From positions 1 through 39,668 of the forward strand of contig CALLJT010000010.1 in assembly GCA_938050265.1 (NCBI GenBank): 39,668 nucleotides of DNA, in the 5' to 3' direction. The translations under genes and the position numbers were made by a program. How positions within the stretch are numbered: the stretch's first letter is position 1; each line of letters starts with the position of its first letter. Positions 2,954-39,668 of the stretch are shown piece by piece. Origin of the DNA: Candidatus Saccharimonadia bacterium (GTDB lineage Bacteria; Patescibacteriota; Saccharimonadia; Saccharimonadales; SZUA-47). The notes under the pieces are model-generated. The model was not told where the DNA came from. It worked only from the letters and a program-made list of their open reading frames with translations, and ran no database searches.

Positions 2954-3075
2954 CTGACCCACGTCCACTTTTTCCTGTGAGAGTAGTATAAGCGTAGTGC
3001 AGCCAGAGGCATCCCGCCTTCGGGGTGGCCCTGCGCGAAACGCTACTCGATGAGGGAAACGTGGACGTGGGTCAG
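2954..3075. mobile_element. Palindromic ~120-nt MITE-like / structured repeat, copy 1
   Basis: Perfect 14-bp terminal inverted repeat TGACCCACGTCCAC...GTGGACGTGGGTCA. The core 2955-3074 is 120/120 identical to 5371-5490. It lies between the convergent ends of rpsT and holA. Confidence 0.7.
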
Positions 3076-5352: not shown

Positions 5353-5370
5353 CCGCTACAGTCCGTGCGA

Positions 5371-5490
5371 TGACCCACGTCCACTTTTTCCTGTGAGAGT
5401 AGTATAAGCGTAGTGCAGCCAGAGGCATCCCGCCTTCGGGGTGGCCCTGCGCGAAACGCTACTCGATGAGGGAAACGTGGACGTGGGTCA
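5371..5490. mobile_element. Palindromic MITE-like repeat, copy 2
   Basis: Identical to 2955-3074. Flanked by the 9-bp direct repeat AGTCCGTGC (5360-5368 and 5492-5500). Its last 3 nt supply the stop codon of the HAD gene. Confidence 0.75.
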
Positions 5491-6066
5491 GAGTCCGTGC
5501 TGTCGAAGCGCCTGTGTGCACGAAGAGATCCCCGTATACAACTCAGCAACCATGCCCACACTGCGTGCACCGTCAACGTTACGCTGTACATCATCAAAAA
5601 ACAGGCACTGTTCAGGCTTGATTGCGAGCTGGTCACTCACGTATTCGAATAAGCGACGATCAGGCTTAACATACCCAACTGCCCCACTCTCGACTATCGC
5701 ATCAAAATAATTGTCGACCTGCTCTGTCGATAGATTGCGAGCCAAAAACCCAGCCCCCACGTTCGAAACAATCGCAGTCTTCAGCCCTCGGCTGCGCAGC
5801 TCTGCGATGACCTGCAGTAGCCCTGGGTCGAGCGCACCCATCTGGTCACGCTCCCGGACGACCTCTTCCAGCTCACGCCCATATATCTCAGATGCAGCAC
5901 GCCAAAACTCATCGCGGTCGATATGACCATAGTTAGCTGCTCGGGCAATATCTGCAAGCTCCTGATCCTGTGCATCGGTCCTGTCAGGGATATACAGATT
6001 CGCTAGCCCCCATAACGTGTCTGCATGCAGCACGCCAAAAAAATCAAACAGCACGGCTTTAATCAT
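5488..6066 (-). CDS. HAD-superfamily hydrolase (subfamily IA-like)
   Basis: Motif I-like VLFDFFGVL (second Asp replaced), then IVSNVG, KPD and FFDDVQRN motifs. ATG at 6066 is preferred over the TTG at 6081. Confidence 0.75.
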   Translation of the reverse strand: MIKAVLFDFFGVLHADTLWGLANLYIPDRTDAQDQELADIARAANYGHIDRDEFWRAASEIYGRELEEVVRERDQMGALDPGLLQVIAELRSRGLKTAIVSNVGAGFLARNLSTEQVDNYFDAIVESGAVGYVKPDRRLFEYVSDQLAIKPEQCLFFDDVQRNVDGARSVGMVAELYTGISSCTQALRQHGL

Positions 6067-17529: not shown

Positions 17530-19113
17530 ATGACTCGACTAATAGCAAACAAAGTACTACTTGGGACAGCGCTTTTCGCGCTCGCTGGACTACCGGGCAT
17601 CGGTACAACGGCAGTGTCGGCGATGCCCATGAACAAGCACGCATCATCGCACACTCGACCAGAAATGTCACTCGGGCATTTTCAAGTAACCATACATAAC
17701 GTCAGTACGGACCAGCCGCTCGCGCCGGGTATATATGTTGTACATGACGACCGAGCATCACTCAACTTCGAGGGTCAACTCTCCCCTGCTGCGTTTGAAT
17801 CGCTGGCAGAAGTAGGCAGCCCAACGGCTGCTGCAGAGCTTGTAGCAACACTACCTGGTGTGCATGATGTTATCGTAATGGACGCACCAGTCACGCCTGG
17901 CGAAAGCACCACCCTCAATATACAAGCACCAGTTGGCAGTCTCCTCTCTGGGCTACAAATGCCAGTCGCAACAAACGACGGGCTTGCGCTTGTAGATTCT
18001 GTAAAGCTTACGGGTAGATCACAGACTATCGATGCAGCTAACTACGACAACGGTACTGAAGAAAACAGTCCACTTGGCTCTGGATTTGACGGTGGTCAAC
18101 CTGACCCAAGCCGTGGAGCCGAAAACATCGACAACGGTGTTGCAACTGACCCGCAGGAACCGTTTGCTGTTCACCCACAGCTGACAGACACCGTACTGCG
18201 TGTGAGTGTAGACAAAATGAAAAAAGACAAAGCACCGAAATCTCACAGCTACGACGTCACAATCTATAACACGAGCACGGACCAGCCGCTCGCGCCTGGT
18301 ATATATGTTGTACATGACGACCGAGCATCACTCAACTTCGAGGGTCAACTCTCCCCTGCTGCGTTTGAATCGCTGGCAGAAGTAGGCAGCCCTGCCGCTG
18401 CAGCTGAACTCGTACAGTCACTCCCTGGTGTCATGAGCGTACACGTTATGGATGCACCGATACTACCAGGTGAAATGACACAGTTCGAGATCATGGCGCC
18501 ACATGGCTACTTATTCTCTGGGTTACAGATGCCAGTCGCAACAAACGACGGACTCGCACTGATTGATTCGATCACGCTGCAAGGAGAGGCCGTAGAAATG
18601 TATGCCGAAAACTACGACAACGGTACTGAAGAAAACAGTCCACTTGGCTCTGGATTCGACGGTGGTCAACCTGACCCAAGCCGGGGCGCTGAAAACATCG
18701 ACAACGGTGTTGCAACTGACCCACAGGAAGTAGTCGCACCGCATCCGCAGCTCACTACACCAGTGTTGAAAGCCTCTGTTGAGCCCGTCCGCGGTCCACT
18801 ATCGTGCGAACTACACGGCTACAACCGCAATAATATGTCAGAAACGTTTTCGAGCGGCCAAGACATTGCACTACACACCAACGTCGGGCTGAAGGTGCAT
18901 GCACCAGACGCAGTGAGTTACGATTGGTATGTTGATTTCAACGGCGACGACATTGAGAATACTCGCCAGCACGAAGTAGCAGAAGATACATGGAGCTATA
19001 CCGTATGGAGCCATGGAACGTTCACCTACACAGTGAAGGTTACTGATGTACACGGCGAAACAGCTACGTGTTCATTCGACGTACACGTGCCATACGCACA
19101 CGATCGCCAGTAA
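17530..19113 (+). CDS. Secreted protein with two tandem spondin-N-like domains and a C-terminal PKD/Ig-like domain
   Basis: Signal peptide MTRLIANKVLLGTALFALAGLPGIGTTAVSA. A ~190-aa module is repeated (FESLAEVGSP...MPVATNDGLAL...YDNGTEENSPLGSGFDGGQPDP). The C-terminus reads YTVKVTDVHGETATCSFDV. SD is AAAGGAG. Confidence 0.8.
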   Translation: MTRLIANKVLLGTALFALAGLPGIGTTAVSAMPMNKHASSHTRPEMSLGHFQVTIHNVSTDQPLAPGIYVVHDDRASLNFEGQLSPAAFESLAEVGSPTAAAELVATLPGVHDVIVMDAPVTPGESTTLNIQAPVGSLLSGLQMPVATNDGLALVDSVKLTGRSQTIDAANYDNGTEENSPLGSGFDGGQPDPSRGAENIDNGVATDPQEPFAVHPQLTDTVLRVSVDKMKKDKAPKSHSYDVTIYNTSTDQPLAPGIYVVHDDRASLNFEGQLSPAAFESLAEVGSPAAAAELVQSLPGVMSVHVMDAPILPGEMTQFEIMAPHGYLFSGLQMPVATNDGLALIDSITLQGEAVEMYAENYDNGTEENSPLGSGFDGGQPDPSRGAENIDNGVATDPQEVVAPHPQLTTPVLKASVEPVRGPLSCELHGYNRNNMSETFSSGQDIALHTNVGLKVHAPDAVSYDWYVDFNGDDIENTRQHEVAEDTWSYTVWSHGTFTYTVKVTDVHGETATCSFDVHVPYAHDRQ

Positions 19114-21241: not shown

Positions 21242-22996
21242 CTAATGTGTTTTTTCAGAGCTCGAAAACTGAACTATGAGATCGTCAAGCTGCTTAACTG
21301 CTTGTAGTAATATGCCTTGTTCGTTTTCTGTTGCTTCAGCGAGCTCTTGTGCGAGGGCTGATTTTTTCGTTTTTGCGTATACTCGTACCAGTCTGCTAAT
21401 GAGTCGATGGGCTTGATAGCGCAGCTCATGTTCGTCAGTATGCTGGTAGAATTCCTCGTATAGAAGTGCCAACATTGTACCATATTCTTTGTTATCGAGC
21501 GAAGGTGTGACGCCTGGGTGGTCGGCGATCAGTCGCGCCGCAGTCTGAGCCCCCTCAGAAAACACATCCACCGGGATACGTCGGACCATCTCCCCTATCA
21601 CACTATGCTTTGAGCCAAGGGCCAAAATGTGCTGTTCGCGAACACGCTGTTCTTTAGCACTCTGCTGTTCATCTTGTTTTTGCGGGGCTACACGCTTGAG
21701 TCGTTTTTGTGTCGTCTGCTTGGCATTGATTTTGTCAGTGATTGTTTGTATCGACGTGCTTGTGCGTGTGGCCAGCACATCCGCATAATGCTCTTGTTCG
21801 ACGGGGTCGCTGAGCTGTTTTAATATAGGTATAATTTCGGCTACAAATCGTCGTTTACCCTGTGCGCTTTTCATGTCTACACTGCCTGCGACCCGGTCGA
21901 TCAGCCAATCCACCATATACTGTGGGTTTTCAACGACAGCCTGCCACAATCGGGCGTCCTGCGCGATCAGCTCGTCCGGGTCTTTACCCTCTGGGACCGA
22001 AATAATGCTCATGTCGATACCACCGAGGCTTTGAGCGAGTGGGATCGCCCGTTTTGCTGCGTCGTGACCCGCCCGGTCGTCATCAAACGCTACTCGAATA
22101 TCGCCCGTGAACCGCTTAAGACTTTTCAGATGATGCGACGTTAAAGCAGTTCCGGCGCTGGCCACAACATTACACACGCCAGCCTGATGAGACGCTACTA
22201 CATCCAGGTTGCCCTCGACAACGACCGCAAACCCTTGTTTACGGATGGCTTCCTTCGCGAGATAAAACCCAAACACTTGCCTGCCTTTGTCGTACAACTG
22301 TGTCGCTGGCGTATTGATATATTTCGGACCATGTGCCGTGTCGGACAGTTTACGTGCGGTGAACCCAACGGGCCGACCCTGTCCATCTCGCAGAGGTATC
22401 ATCACCCGACCGCGAAACATATCGTAGACATCTGAGCCACGACTACTCACAAGACCTGCCTGTTTCAACTCATCCGCATCGTATCCTTTCGATGTGAGGT
22501 GTTTTAGAAGTGCTTTGCCACTCTCTGGCGCATATCCAAACCGAAAATCCAGTATAGTCTGCTTACTATAGCCGCGTTTCTTGCGCACATATTCTAGTGG
22601 CGGTGTTGTGCGAGTTAGTTGTACCTGATAAAACTTCACCGCTGCTTCTACGGCTTCGTATAGTCGTTTTTTTGATCCAGAACTATTCGGTGCTTGGTCA
22701 CGAGTACCTGTGCGGTACTGCTCCAGATCGACACCGGCTTTCCTGGCGAGTACCTCAAGTGAACCTTTGAAATCCAAACCCTCTACTTCCTGAATAAAGC
22801 TGAACATATCACCACCGCGCCCTGAGCTGAAGTCATGCCATATTTGTTTCTCTGGGCTCACAACAAAACTCGGAGACTTTTCGTTTGTCCAAGGGCTCAG
22901 GCCTTTGAAGTTGCGACCAGCGCGCTTCAGCTGCACGTATTCACTCACAACGTCTTCTATGTCTAGGCGTGATTTGATATCTGCAACAGCATCCAT
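21242..22996 (-). CDS. dnaG: DNA primase
   Basis: The N-terminus is unusual: the zinc-ribbon region GLSPWTNEKSPSFVVSPEKQIWHDFSSGRGGDMFSF has no cysteines. A TOPRIM EGNLDV motif is present. The start was set to MDAVADIK (22996); the 41 upstream codons run into the repeat element. Confidence 0.92.
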   Translation of the reverse strand: MDAVADIKSRLDIEDVVSEYVQLKRAGRNFKGLSPWTNEKSPSFVVSPEKQIWHDFSSGRGGDMFSFIQEVEGLDFKGSLEVLARKAGVDLEQYRTGTRDQAPNSSGSKKRLYEAVEAAVKFYQVQLTRTTPPLEYVRKKRGYSKQTILDFRFGYAPESGKALLKHLTSKGYDADELKQAGLVSSRGSDVYDMFRGRVMIPLRDGQGRPVGFTARKLSDTAHGPKYINTPATQLYDKGRQVFGFYLAKEAIRKQGFAVVVEGNLDVVASHQAGVCNVVASAGTALTSHHLKSLKRFTGDIRVAFDDDRAGHDAAKRAIPLAQSLGGIDMSIISVPEGKDPDELIAQDARLWQAVVENPQYMVDWLIDRVAGSVDMKSAQGKRRFVAEIIPILKQLSDPVEQEHYADVLATRTSTSIQTITDKINAKQTTQKRLKRVAPQKQDEQQSAKEQRVREQHILALGSKHSVIGEMVRRIPVDVFSEGAQTAARLIADHPGVTPSLDNKEYGTMLALLYEEFYQHTDEHELRYQAHRLISRLVRVYAKTKKSALAQELAEATENEQGILLQAVKQLDDLIVQFSSSEKTH

Positions 22997-23071
22997 ACCT
23001 CTAGTATCGTGTATCGTCCTATAAAAACAAAGCATGTACGCTTCGAATGCCCTGTCTGCCATGCAGTGTTT

Positions 23072-23189
23072 CTGACCCACACTCACTTTTTCCTCAAGAG
23101 CAGTATAAGCGTAGTGCAACCAGAGGCGACCCTCCTAAGGGCGCCCCTGCGTGTAACGCTACTCGGAGGGAAAAGTGAGTGTGGGTCAG
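23072..23189. mobile_element. Palindromic MITE-like repeat, copy 3 (divergent variant)
   Basis: TIR TGACCCACACTCAC...GTGAGTGTGGGTCA, a perfect 14 bp. It is flanked by the perfect 9-bp direct repeat GCAGTGTTT (23063-23071 and 23190-23198). Confidence 0.8.
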
Positions 23190-23232
23190 GCAGTGTTTTG
23201 CCGCTTATGATTAAAATGGTAAAATTATAGGC

Positions 23233-23946
23233 ATGCAACCAGACCTACAAAATGGCGAAGAAAACCCCTACGGCTTTATATTCGACCAGAATTCTCAGAC
23301 GACACCCGGCACCAACACGGCGGCTGTCGGAGCAGACAAAACCAAGCAGTACCTCCTGTTTGGCGTATTCGCACTCGCTATCTTAGCAATTGCAGGTATT
23401 GCAGCAACCATATTCCTGAAGCCCACCCCACCGTCAGCACCTGAGCTCGTCCGTGTACGTGCAATTCAAAACGAACTTATCCGCGTCCGCGAAATCGGCA
23501 ACAAAAACCTTGGACAATACGATCTACGAAAAGATGTAGACACTATCAATCTTGTCCTGCAAACCGACACTGCAACAATTAGCGGCCTCATCAGAACCAG
23601 AGGTGTCGTCACCCTGCCTGGCGAACTATCACAGTTCAAAAACTCAACCTACGATACAAGTCTGCAAAACGCGCTCAGTAACGACACACATGACACGGTC
23701 TACCGCGATATCGTGGACCAGCTGGCTGGACAGTACTATGAATCAGTCAAAGCGGCCGAAAACCGTGCGGTCAGCAGAACCGAACAGGCCCAACTAGCAG
23801 CAGTACGTAGCAACATCGAAATCACGTTCGACTTCGAAGACCCGTCTGAGAGTACCGAGTCTACCGAGCGACAAGACACAGCGACAGAACCAAGCGAACC
23901 TGACGCAGACACCGCCGATGAACCTATCCCAAGCCTGTTTAATTAA
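23233..23946 (+). CDS. Membrane-anchored hypothetical protein
   Basis: 237 aa with one TM helix (YLLFGVFALAILAIAGIAATIFL) and an acidic C-terminal tail. Confidence 0.55.
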   Translation: MQPDLQNGEENPYGFIFDQNSQTTPGTNTAAVGADKTKQYLLFGVFALAILAIAGIAATIFLKPTPPSAPELVRVRAIQNELIRVREIGNKNLGQYDLRKDVDTINLVLQTDTATISGLIRTRGVVTLPGELSQFKNSTYDTSLQNALSNDTHDTVYRDIVDQLAGQYYESVKAAENRAVSRTEQAQLAAVRSNIEITFDFEDPSESTESTERQDTATEPSEPDADTADEPIPSLFN

Positions 23947-25410: not shown

Positions 25411-25603
25411 ATACTTGTACTCCCTTATTTGTAATCCTAATGTATACGAAAACTGTTCACTTGGCAAGCTGACCTGCGCTCACTTTTCTAAACCCAAACG
25501 TTCATAGGGTGACAAGATTGAAGTTTTGTTCTTTAGGAATGATGCCATAGCATCATTTCTAAAGGAAAGACTTCCAGATTGTTAGCATAGGGGCGTTTGG
25601 GGT

Positions 25604-25624
25604 GGAAAAGTGAGTGTGGGTCAG
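25604..25624. repeat. Solo right-end remnant of the palindromic repeat family
   Basis: GGAAAAGTGAGTGTGGGTCAG matches the right terminus of copy 3 at 21/21. Confidence 0.5.
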
Positions 25625-31065: not shown

Positions 31066-31407
31066 TCACAGGTCTAATACTTTCCTGAGGCCATCATCTA
31101 TCTGTCGCTGTGCCTTCTGTGATAGCTGCCCAACGTATTCCTTGAGAAATCGTCTATCAATCGTTATTAACTGTGACACATTCGCGACTGAATCTTTGGG
31201 TAGCCCTTCTTCTTTTTTGTGTAACATTACGTTGCCTGGAGACATAGCCATCTTGAGATTTGAAGTGATGCCTATCGCTAATACTGTTCTTATTTTGGTT
31301 TCGTTAAAATCGTCAGACTGAACGACGAGTATTGGTCGTCTATAGCCAGGTTCTGAGCCAGTTGGTTCTGGTAAATCTACCCACCATATCGCTCCTCTAA
31401 CTACCAT
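31066..31407 (-). CDS. mazF: MazF/PemK-family endoribonuclease toxin
   Basis: RGAIWWVDLPEPTGSEPGYRRPILVVQSDDFN. Overlaps the mazE stop (ATGGTAG). Confidence 0.88.
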   Translation of the reverse strand: MVVRGAIWWVDLPEPTGSEPGYRRPILVVQSDDFNETKIRTVLAIGITSNLKMAMSPGNVMLHKKEEGLPKDSVANVSQLITIDRRFLKEYVGQLSQKAQRQIDDGLRKVLDL

Positions 31408-31678: not shown

Positions 31679-31679
31679 A

Positions 31680-31749
31680 CGTCTCACGTCTCACGTCTCA
31701 CGTCTCACGTCTCACGTCTCACGTCTCACGTCTCACGTCTCACGTCTCA
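31680..31749. repeat. Perfect tandem heptanucleotide array (CGTCTCA)x10
   Basis: Counted directly: ten uninterrupted identical units. They are followed by the palindrome CTCAC-TA-GTGAG, a partial inverted unit. Confidence 0.97.
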
Positions 31750-31809
31750 CTAGTGAGTATGCCCTACTTATCCCCATTCTGAAACAAAATACTATATACT
31801 CTTAGCTAT

Positions 31810-32535
31810 ATGGGAGACCCAACGAAACTCATTGTACAAGCTGTGCGCCTCTGGATGGCACGCTTTGCTCGGTGGCTCAACGCCGTAACCAACGGCGCCG
31901 TGTTGCCCGTGCATATCACTATACTGTCGCTTCTCGGCCACTTCAGCGTCGTGTGGGCACTCTGGGACTCTCGCCCAGTGCTCGCTGCGGGACTACTGAC
32001 TGGGTTTGGCCTCCTTGATGCACTCGACGGTGCACTCGCGAGAGAACAAGGAACAGCGAGCAAACTTGGCATGCTGTTTGACGCAGTTACCGACCGACTC
32101 AAAGAAACGCTGGTCTACGTCGGCCTGATCGTGTACGCAGGCAATCATGTATCCGAAGTCCGTCCCTGGGTAATCGTCGCGGTTGCTGGTACGTCCTTGC
32201 TTGTCAGTTATGTAAAAGCCAAAAGCGAAATGGCTGTCGCCGACTCTCATGCGGACCGCCAGAAACTCAACCAGATGTTTTCCATCGGCCTCGCACGGTA
32301 TGAAATCCGCACGACAATCGTAGTCGTTGGGCTCCTCATGCCCGTGCTGCTCGCACCGCTCCTGCACTTCACGATCGCTATCAACCTCATGACTGCAGCG
32401 CTGCGGTTTCTCCAAGCGGCAGAGGTCCTACAAAAAGAGAACTCAGAAGAGTCATCCGACTCTCAAAACACAACAAAAACGCTCCCACAACGCACAGCCA
32501 CGTCCAGGAAACAAAAGAAAGACAAGAAAAAATGA
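31810..32535 (+). CDS. CDP-alcohol phosphatidyltransferase
   Basis: Exact signature D-x2-DG-x2-AR-x8-G-x3-D-x3-D (DALDGALAREQGTASKLGMLFDAVTD). Multi-TM protein with a Lys-rich tail. Confidence 0.88.
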   Translation: MGDPTKLIVQAVRLWMARFARWLNAVTNGAVLPVHITILSLLGHFSVVWALWDSRPVLAAGLLTGFGLLDALDGALAREQGTASKLGMLFDAVTDRLKETLVYVGLIVYAGNHVSEVRPWVIVAVAGTSLLVSYVKAKSEMAVADSHADRQKLNQMFSIGLARYEIRTTIVVVGLLMPVLLAPLLHFTIAINLMTAALRFLQAAEVLQKENSEESSDSQNTTKTLPQRTATSRKQKKDKKK

Positions 32536-35693: not shown

Positions 35694-35861
35694 TATAGCC
35701 AAAGCAAAACAAAATCAGCTTCTTTTGAATCTTGATCTGAGCGAGCTTGAAAAAGCTGTTTCTCGAATGAAGTATATCTGTAGATATAGCAAGGGAGAGA
35801 ACGGGTTTTTGAGCCGTTCAGGCGAGTTCAAAAGTGTTTGTTTTGTTTTGCTTTGGCTATA
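35694..35861. repeat. Perfect 21-bp inverted repeat pair separated by 126 bp
   Basis: TATAGCCAAAGCAAAACAAAA (35694-35714) is the exact reverse complement of 35841-35861. The right arm lies within the last 11 codons of tag. Confidence 0.9.
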
Positions 35862-38500: not shown

Positions 38501-38618
38501 CTGACCCACATTCACTTTTTTCTCAAGAGTAGTATAAGCGTAGTGCAGCCAGAGACACCCTTCCTAGGGGTGGCCCTGCGCGAAACGCTACTCGGAGGGA
38601 AACGTGAGTATGGGTCAG
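38501..38618. mobile_element. Palindromic MITE-like repeat, copy 4
   Basis: TIR TGACCCACATTCAC...GTGAGTATGGGTCA (one mismatch and one G-U). The flanks GGCAGCACC and GGCAACATT match 6/9. It lies 77 nt upstream of tRNA-Ser. Confidence 0.7.
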
Positions 38619-39436: not shown

Positions 39437-39486
39437 AGGTCGCACGTTCGAATCGGGCCTGGTTTGCAGCCATAAAAAAAGCCGGT
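39437..39486 (+). repeat. 50-bp direct repeat, copy 1 (tRNA-3'-end-like segment plus left half of a terminator)
   Basis: Identical to 39619-39668. Contains GCACG-TTCGAAT-CGGGC (T-arm-like) and ...GCAGCCA. Confidence 0.9.
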
Positions 39487-39504
39487 CAGAAGACCGGCAT
39501 TTTT
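39473..39504. terminator. Bidirectional rho-independent terminator
   Basis: AAAAAAA-GCCGGTC-AGAA-GACCGGC-ATTTTTT. Confidence 0.72.
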
Positions 39505-39618
39505 TGTGGTGCACCCGGCACGAACGTACTCACTGGCTCCCCCCACTTTTTCACTGTTGTCAGCAGAGCCGCCACCGGAAAAAGCTACTCAGAGCGCCAC
39601 TGGCGCTCTTCCCCTCAC

Positions 39619-39668
39619 GGTCGCACGTTCGAATCGGGCCTGGTTTGCAGCCATAAAAAAAGCCGGTC
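39619..39668 (+). repeat. 50-bp direct repeat, copy 2 (truncated by the window end)
   Basis: 50/50 identical to 39437-39486. Confidence 0.9.

Follow-up and report, generated by a model that had tools for sequence, protein, structure and literature searches.

The 118-bp segment at positions 23072-23189, lying upstream of dnaG, is very probably a MITE that carries the ends of an IS4-family (IS10-like) IS resident in the Saccharibacteria/Saccharimonadales. It was analysed within a stretch of 39,668 nt from a Candidatus Saccharimonadia bacterium, here called the window, in which it is one of five elements with the same termini and is designated copy 3. We observe a family of repeats, 9-bp duplications, termini in common with a transposase-bearing IS, and the family features of the transposase of that IS. 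The coordinates are collected in Table 1.

Table 1. Coordinates of the five elements, of the parts of copy 3 and of the neighbouring features in the window.
Feature	Position	Strand	Basis or remarks
MITE copy 1, 122 bp	2954-3075	+	interior as copy 3; TIR triplet GTC/GTC; abutting 9-mers 3/9
MITE copy 2	5370-5491	+	5371-5491 100% identical to copy 1
dnaG, 584 aa, true start ATG 22996	21242-22996	-	domain start, homologue lengths, N-terminus
Left copy of 9-bp target-site duplication, GCAGTGTTT	23063-23071	.	sequence read
MITE copy 3, 118 bp, non-coding, single-hairpin fold	23072-23189	+	sequence, repeat and fold analysis
Left terminal inverted repeat of copy 3, CTGACCCACACTCACTTTTTCCTC	23072-23095	+	first 19-20 nt identical to both autonomous-IS ends
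Right terminal inverted repeat of copy 3	23166-23189	-	reverse complement CTGACCCACACTCACTTTTCCCTC; resembles IS right end ...CACTTTTTCCCTCC over ~25 nt
Right copy of 9-bp target-site duplication, GCAGTGTTT	23190-23198	.	sequence read
Promoter-like site TTGCCG-16-TG-TAAAAT	23198-23225	+	consensus match only; ends 7 nt before ATG 23233
Divergent 237-aa gene	23233-23946	+	no Pfam match; orthologue (35% identity) of 247-aa gene beside dnaG in closest relative
MITE copy 4, 156 bp	25469-25624	+	same termini, unrelated hairpin interior of 108 nt
MITE copy 5, 118 bp	38501-38618	+	87% identical to copy 3

Copy 3 starts with CTGACCCACACTCACTTTTTCCTC and ends with GAGGGAAAAGTGAGTGTGGGTCAG. Its terminal inverted repeats (TIRs) are 24 nt in length and 96% complementary, and start with CTGACCCAC. 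The element is flush with GCAGTGTTT on either side, i.e. there are zero bases between the element and the 9-mer, and the perfect 9-bp target-site duplication (TSD) abutting both ends that was described in an earlier sequence-only reading is correct in both coordinates and description. A search of the window found this 9-mer twice on the plus strand, both occurrences being those at copy 3, and twice on the minus strand ~20 kb away. The probability that two abutting 9-mers are identical at all nine positions (9/9) by chance is 4^-9, or ~4e-6. The plus strand of copy 3 is predicted to fold into a single long hairpin of -71.5 kcal/mol with z = -11, and the opposite strand folds about as well, with z about -9. 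The ORFs that cross the element are a false extension of DnaG and a number of mechanical ORFs of 43-73 codons that are unsupported as genes.

The terminus occurs ten times in the window at ≤2 mismatches, where the chance expectation is none. The five elements have sizes of 118-156 bp, all have TIRs and all are intergenic. They occupy 1.6% of the 39.7-kb window, corresponding to one copy per 8 kb. Two unrelated kinds of interior lie behind the common termini, one of 70 nt that is present in copies 1, 2, 3 and 5, and another in copy 4. Between copies 1 and 2 the identity is 100% across 121 nt, and spread was therefore recent. A recognisable TSD was not found at copy 1 (abutting 9-mers 3/9), which sits between the convergent S20-HHH and holA genes. 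Copy 2 has AGTCCGTGC on both sides, but one extra base displaces the left one. The 9-mers abutting copy 4, CTTGGCAAG and CTTGGCAAC, match at 8/9 positions, and those abutting copy 5, GGCAGCACC and GGCAACATT, at 6/9. Copy 5 is located 77 nt upstream of tRNA-Ser.

We note that at the right end of copy 2 (5485-5491) the terminal cTGAccc gives the HAD-hydrolase ORF its stop codon (5488-5490, minus strand). The reconstructed empty site would read ..CAC GGA CTG TAG and the filled site reads ..CAC GGA CTC TGA, so the end of the HAD-hydrolase protein is unchanged by the insertion.

Related elements were sought using a permissive pattern for the terminus with one genome per species. This returned 114 rows, mostly chance matches in unrelated bacteria, and the informative rows were ~20 loci in Candidatus Saccharibacteria, Saccharimonadales and Patescibacteria MAGs. 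In the loci of the Saccharibacteria lineage the same termini enclose elements of 103-149 bp with several more unrelated interiors, and in five of these MAG elements (L037, L063, L065, L103 and L113) the abutting 9-mers match at 8/9 positions. Taking the window together with the Saccharibacteria/Saccharimonadales contigs, abutting 9-mers that match at 8/9 or better are found in 9 of ~19 bounded elements, where the chance is ~1e-4 per element. Numerous copies sit at the ends of MAG contigs, which indicates that the repeat breaks the assemblies. No copy of the terminus was found in viral contigs, and the papers searched gave no description of MITEs in Saccharibacteria.

Three of these loci deserve brief comment. 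Single TIR matches in L057 and L058 were considered as possible IS ends and rejected, the former being a truncated copy and the latter an ordinary small element. Contig L075 begins inside an element (1-46), with the terminus triplet GTC like that of window copies 1 and 2 and a subterminal sequence, CCCTCCAATATGT, that agrees with the right end of the IS. The 46 nt present there hint at a GTC-type autonomous IS.

The 237-aa protein adjacent to copy 3 was looked up by exact match, which gave one further contig (L127), from the same organism, and in this the site is filled. For none of the copies did L127, the DnaG relatives or the reconstructed sites reveal an empty site. The nearest DnaG relative is 69% identical and too distant to align, and the reconstructed empty sites (one of which is ...CTGCCATGCAGTGTTTTGCCGC...) gave no match when blasted against the collected loci.

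The autonomous IS was located in related Saccharibacteria metagenomes. Copies at the contig ends of L002, L067 and L092 run past the terminus into shared sequence with an ATG and the start of an ORF, and a metagenome scan with 23 nt of this ORF start as query returned 12 loci. Complete IS elements of 1144-1162 bp are present in six of the 12, with the 19-nt sequence CTGACCCACACTCACTTTT bounding both sides; in L116 the right-end terminus has one mismatch. Each IS contains one ORF, of 348-354 aa. More complete copies, of 1135-1181 bp, are found on contigs with more distant transposase homologues. Target-site duplications of 9/9 flank the IS in L115 (GCTCACAGC), L132 (GCAAATCTC), L136 (GCTTGACAG), L138 (TATAACAAT) and L144 (GTTCCACAC). 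In L133 a 9/9 duplication follows a duplicated terminal 7-mer, and in L116 the match is 8/9. At the left end of the IS the sequence TTGAC lies just inside the TIR, as a -35-like box directed into the ORF. At the right end the sequence is ...CCTCC-AAAAGTG..., and in the main MITE subfamily of the window the two arms are both similar to it. No transposase was found in the 39.7-kb window itself. The sequence-only reading had proposed a MITE mobilised by a DDE transposase, and held that this would weaken if no element with related termini and a transposase existed in the genome or lineage and the other genomic copies had no TSD pattern. An autonomous DDE IS with the same termini does exist in the lineage, and 9-bp duplications recur in both the small and the full-length elements, supporting the proposal.

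Some individual IS copies have irregular ends. A second terminus begins 4 nt past the IS in L122 (1694-1710), two left termini lie in tandem in L132 (1396-1436), the 7-mer duplicated in L133 (2597-2604) is the terminal GGGTCAG, and in L141 (305-314) a single additional base separates the duplication from the left end, like that at window copy 2. In L139 compared with L140, and in L143 and L145 compared with L144, the same IS copy has one flank in common and the other flank different, the contigs compared having been assembled from different samples. Such a pattern points either to recombination between IS copies or to contigs that are chimeric across the repeat.

The transposase belongs to a recognisable family. 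It matches Pfam DDE_Tnp_1 (PF01609) with 30.9 bits, against a cutoff of 23, and the best NCBIfam model is the IS4 family transposase NF033591, with E 9e-25 over profile positions 5-321 of 340. IS701 and other related families score far below this model. The NF033591 score of 87.5 bits is less than the curated cutoff of 152, so the transposase is a distant member of the family and not closely related to the curated set. In an alignment of 19 homologues, 71-100% identical to the first sequence, the DDE catalytic triad of D94, D158 and E260 is invariant. Y253, R256, E260 and K267 are also invariant, giving a complete YREK signature with the exact Y-(2)-R-(3)-E-(6)-K spacing. Searching at E < 1e-5 gave 459 transposase homologues, mostly on contigs of 1.1-2 kb as expected of a repeated IS; one carries the name of a Candidatus Saccharimonadales transposase. 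A tblastn search of plasmids gave only transposases ~30% identical, from Deinococcus.

Comparison of the transposase with the PDB by sequence was not significant (E 0.2-0.4 for Tn5); the link to Tn5 rests on a fold search. An AlphaFold model calculated on the transposase alignment has a mean pLDDT of 65 overall and 70-94 in the core. In a Foldseek comparison of this model with the PDB the six best matches were all Tn5 transposase (E 1.6e-6, TM(query) 0.49), the confidence of the model being moderate.

According to De Palmenaer et al. 2008 (PMC2266710, Table 1), the YREK signature and direct repeats of ~10 bp separate the IS4 family from IS701, ISH3 and IS1634, in which YREK is absent or partial. 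In the IS4 family the direct repeats measure about 8-13 bp and the ends are CT or CA, and the IS10 subgroup is listed with a length of 1200-1350 bp, direct repeats of 9 bp, CT ends and YREK (PMC2266710, Table 1). IS231A moves by cut-and-paste, and in vitro systems exist for IS10R and IS50R (PMC2266710). The partner IS fits the IS10-type subgroup in its CT ends, YREK and 9-bp duplication, and is ~20-65 bp below the published size range. The sequence-only reading had named IS1-, IS4- and IS256-type elements as candidate relatives; of these IS4 is the right family, judged by YREK, the CT ends and the 9-bp duplication (table in PMC2266710).

Positions 10-12 of the TIR vary between subfamilies and lineages, and are nearly always equal in both arms. 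In the small elements the triplet pairs are ACT/ACT, GTC/GTC, ATG/ATG, AGT/AGT, CCT/CCT, TCT/TCT and ATT/ATT. The IS triplet is ACT/ACT for the sampled transposases that are at least 76% identical to P0121, with the exception of L116 (ACT/CCT), and CCT/CCT for P0174, P0180 and P0201, which are 71-73% identical to P0121. Among the three distinct sequences of the window, two-sided changes that preserve pairing occur at four base pairs, three in the TIR triplet and one apical. The simplest reading is that the symmetric ends are matched transposase-binding ends that are inherited within lineages. It is possible, if rather doubtful, that the triplet acts as an address code that pairs transposase variants with their own MITEs, or alternatively that the hairpin has been selected and exapted as an RNA or DNA signal. 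If there were such an address code, a small, streamlined Saccharibacteria genome would host several MITE lineages without cross-mobilisation.

The hairpin bears on how the element should be regarded. It might primarily be a structured RNA or DNA hairpin that is kept by the host as a terminator, RNA stabiliser or regulatory stem-loop, with mobility being secondary. Such a role would be consistent with its great stability on both strands (z about -11 on the plus and -9 on the minus strand), with four pairing-preserving two-sided changes among only three sequences, with hairpin interiors in most subfamilies (z -3 to -9), and with the intergenic position of all copies. However, the TIR triplet accounts for three of the four covarying pairs, and symmetric variation of the triplet is seen in the autonomous IS too, so these three are explained by matched transposase-binding ends. 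Moreover, the interiors of the subfamilies are unrelated, and some fold no better than shuffled sequence. There is no T-run after the stem, and hence no intrinsic terminator is reported for the element; Rfam at gathering thresholds gave no family match to it, the only match in the window being tRNA-Ser. Lastly copy 3 lies between divergent genes, where transcription is not required. We therefore regard a primary function as a hairpin as unlikely. A multi-copy intergenic palindrome with hairpin character could also recall a REP/BIME-like sequence spread by a RAYT (IS200/IS605-type Y1) transposase, or a palindrome-associated element of the IS200/IS605 type. Those elements have neither TSDs nor the long TIRs common to a DDE element, whereas here 9-bp duplications recur and the termini match those of a DDE_Tnp_1 IS, so that this origin can be almost wholly discounted.

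Another alternative is that each small element is the remnant of a full-length IS that lost its interior in situ, and was never mobile as a short form. The termini of the small elements are identical to those of the IS, and MITEs classically originate by internal deletion. Yet copies 1, 2, 3 and 5 have a common 70-nt interior at four loci that is unrelated to the interior of the IS, and two of them are 100% identical, from which it follows that the short form has itself multiplied. In addition, both arms of this subfamily are like the IS right end (..TTTTCCCTCC) and neither has the IS left end (..TTTTTGACAC). Separate internal deletions, one per site, would not give such arms, and loss in situ is thus very improbable.

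The preferred reading, a mobile MITE with the ends of the IS4-family element, suggests how copy 3 came to its present position. The DDE transposase of ~350 aa would bind the ~20-bp termini CTGACCCAC-NNN-CACTTTTT in trans, excise the element and join it to target cuts staggered by 9 bp. Repair of these staggered cuts would yield GCAGTGTTT on both sides. By analogy with Tn5/Tn10 the chemistry would be cut-and-paste via a hairpin intermediate, which is known from the biochemistry of those transposons. Copy 3 would have landed in a spacer of ~109 bp, upstream of both putative core promoters, and been tolerated there. It is probably neutral for the expression of dnaG. The sole demonstrated effect of copy 3 is to provide an open frame that misleads gene callers into an extended DnaG.

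That extension is seen in a 625-codon ORF (21242-23119), which begins at a TTG within copy 3 and is 41 codons longer than the 584-aa DnaG, and in the database DnaG (P0001, 614 aa), which also starts within copy 3. The extra N-terminal residues are therefore an artefact that the insertion has created. In the 625-codon ORF the Pfam zinc-ribbon starts at residue 44, which aligns with profile position 5. The DnaG homologues have lengths of 571-585 aa, and the closest relative has the same MDAV start. The position of the zinc-ribbon, the lengths of the homologues and the shared MDAV together identify ATG 22996 as the true start of dnaG. The left end of copy 3 is 76 nt from this ATG. The sequence-only reading had placed the element at this distance from a probable start at 22996, between divergent genes, and had taken the 41-codon extension to be spurious; the placement is confirmed in the sequence, and the zinc-ribbon and homologue lengths bear out the extension as false. 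The best named relatives of the DnaG of the window are from Candidatus Saccharibacteria and Saccharimonadales.

The spacer between the divergent genes is ~109 bp once the element and one copy of the duplication are removed. Only one promoter-like site is found in 22900-23300, i.e. that directed towards the divergent 237-aa gene (Table 1). The last base of the right duplication is also the first base of its -35 box, and thus the insertion is just upstream of an intact putative core promoter. On the dnaG side there is a GATACT box 6 nt before the ATG. From these consensus matches copy 3 appears to sit between two apparently intact putative core promoters, and scans for promoters and terminators gave no sign of either within the element itself.

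Relatives with 68-69% DnaG identity (P0002 and P0006) have neither rpsU nor a MITE ahead of dnaG. On L128 and L129, the P0002 contigs, an orthologous divergent gene encoding a membrane protein directly adjoins dnaG-rpoD, and in the P0006 contigs (L130 and L131) an extra 365-aa gene separates the divergent gene from dnaG. It had also been remarked from the sequence that the element occupies the position at which rpsU precedes dnaG in classical macromolecular-synthesis operons. This holds as a fact of position and carries no weight, because the closest relatives examined lack rpsU there too.

The partner IS resembles IS10/Tn10 and IS50/Tn5 in having a DDE transposase with complete YREK encoded by a single ORF, 5'-CT(GA) ends, a 9-bp duplication and an inward -35-like TTGAC in the left end, and its predicted fold is closest to Tn5 transposase. 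It differs from Tn5 in that the transposase is ~350 aa compared with 477 aa (the Tn5 chain length), with sequence similarity that is not significant, and from the IS10 subgroup in its size, 1.14-1.18 kb compared with the published 1.2-1.35 kb. Unlike IS10 and Tn5, its host is a member of the Saccharibacteria (Patescibacteria/CPR), and its nearest annotated plasmid-borne relatives are ~30% identical (Deinococcus). The symmetric target consensus of IS10 is NGCTNAGCN; a symmetric consensus of this kind is not evident among the collected 9-mers.

Known bacterial MITEs include the Correia element of Neisseria, RUP of Streptococcus and ERIC/IRU of enterobacteria. They are non-coding elements of ~100-160 bp with TIRs, a TSD, many intergenic copies and strong hairpin potential, and often mislead gene callers. 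The window elements have these same traits, and, compared by description, differ in their termini, the length of the duplication and the parent IS family. Here, unlike those systems, several unrelated interiors lie behind one pair of termini, and the parent IS is directly identified. A likeness to REP/BIME (RAYT) sequences extends to short intergenic palindromes in many copies; REPs are 20-40 nt, lack a TSD and are Y1-linked, whereas copy 3 measures 118 bp, has a 9-bp TSD and is partnered by a DDE element.

The mechanism is a textbook one, so that the finding adds a member to a family without establishing a new principle. It puts on record, for the Saccharibacteria, which are episymbionts with very small genomes, an IS4-family IS that looks active, together with derived MITEs. 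In practical terms it corrects the start of dnaG, the database protein of 614 aa beginning within the element, and it accounts for the breaks in the assemblies of these genomes at the repeat.

Other features of the window may be recorded. The sequence (G/C/A)ATACTAG, followed by 4-5 nt and ATG, immediately precedes at least six gene starts (dnaG, fpg, the HAD hydrolase, holA and others), with sites at 23006, 5034, 6077, 4026 and 33785 on the minus strand and 5105 on the plus strand. The GATACT part resembles a -10 box whose end is 6-7 nt from the ATG, and the mRNAs would then be leaderless.

At the end of the contig there is a perfect 50-nt direct repeat (39438-39487 and 39619-39668), 181 nt from start to start, with its second copy truncated where the contig stops. 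The repeat resembles a tRNA 3' end (..GTTCGAATCGGGCC..GCAGCCA) that runs into the beginning of a terminator hairpin; there was no tRNA call at 39438-39668. The repeat may be att-site-like or an artefact of assembly. A perfect 21-nt inverted repeat, TATAGCCAAAGCAAAACAAAA / TTTTGTTTTGCTTTGGCTATA, with arms 126 nt apart and no obvious TSD, occupies 35694-35861, and could represent a further small element or a structured region.

Tandem repetition is seen at two places. A heptamer ACGTCTC is repeated in tandem as ~11 units at 31679-31755, between the ORFs 31066-31407 (minus strand) and 31810-32535 (plus strand). A 570-bp tandem duplication of 87-88% identity (17686-18755) lies within a 527-aa ORF (17530-19113), and the protein therefore has an internal repeat. 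Finally, the gene at 2303-2914 encodes a fusion protein of 203 aa, with ribosomal protein S20 followed by a helix-hairpin-helix domain at the C-terminus.
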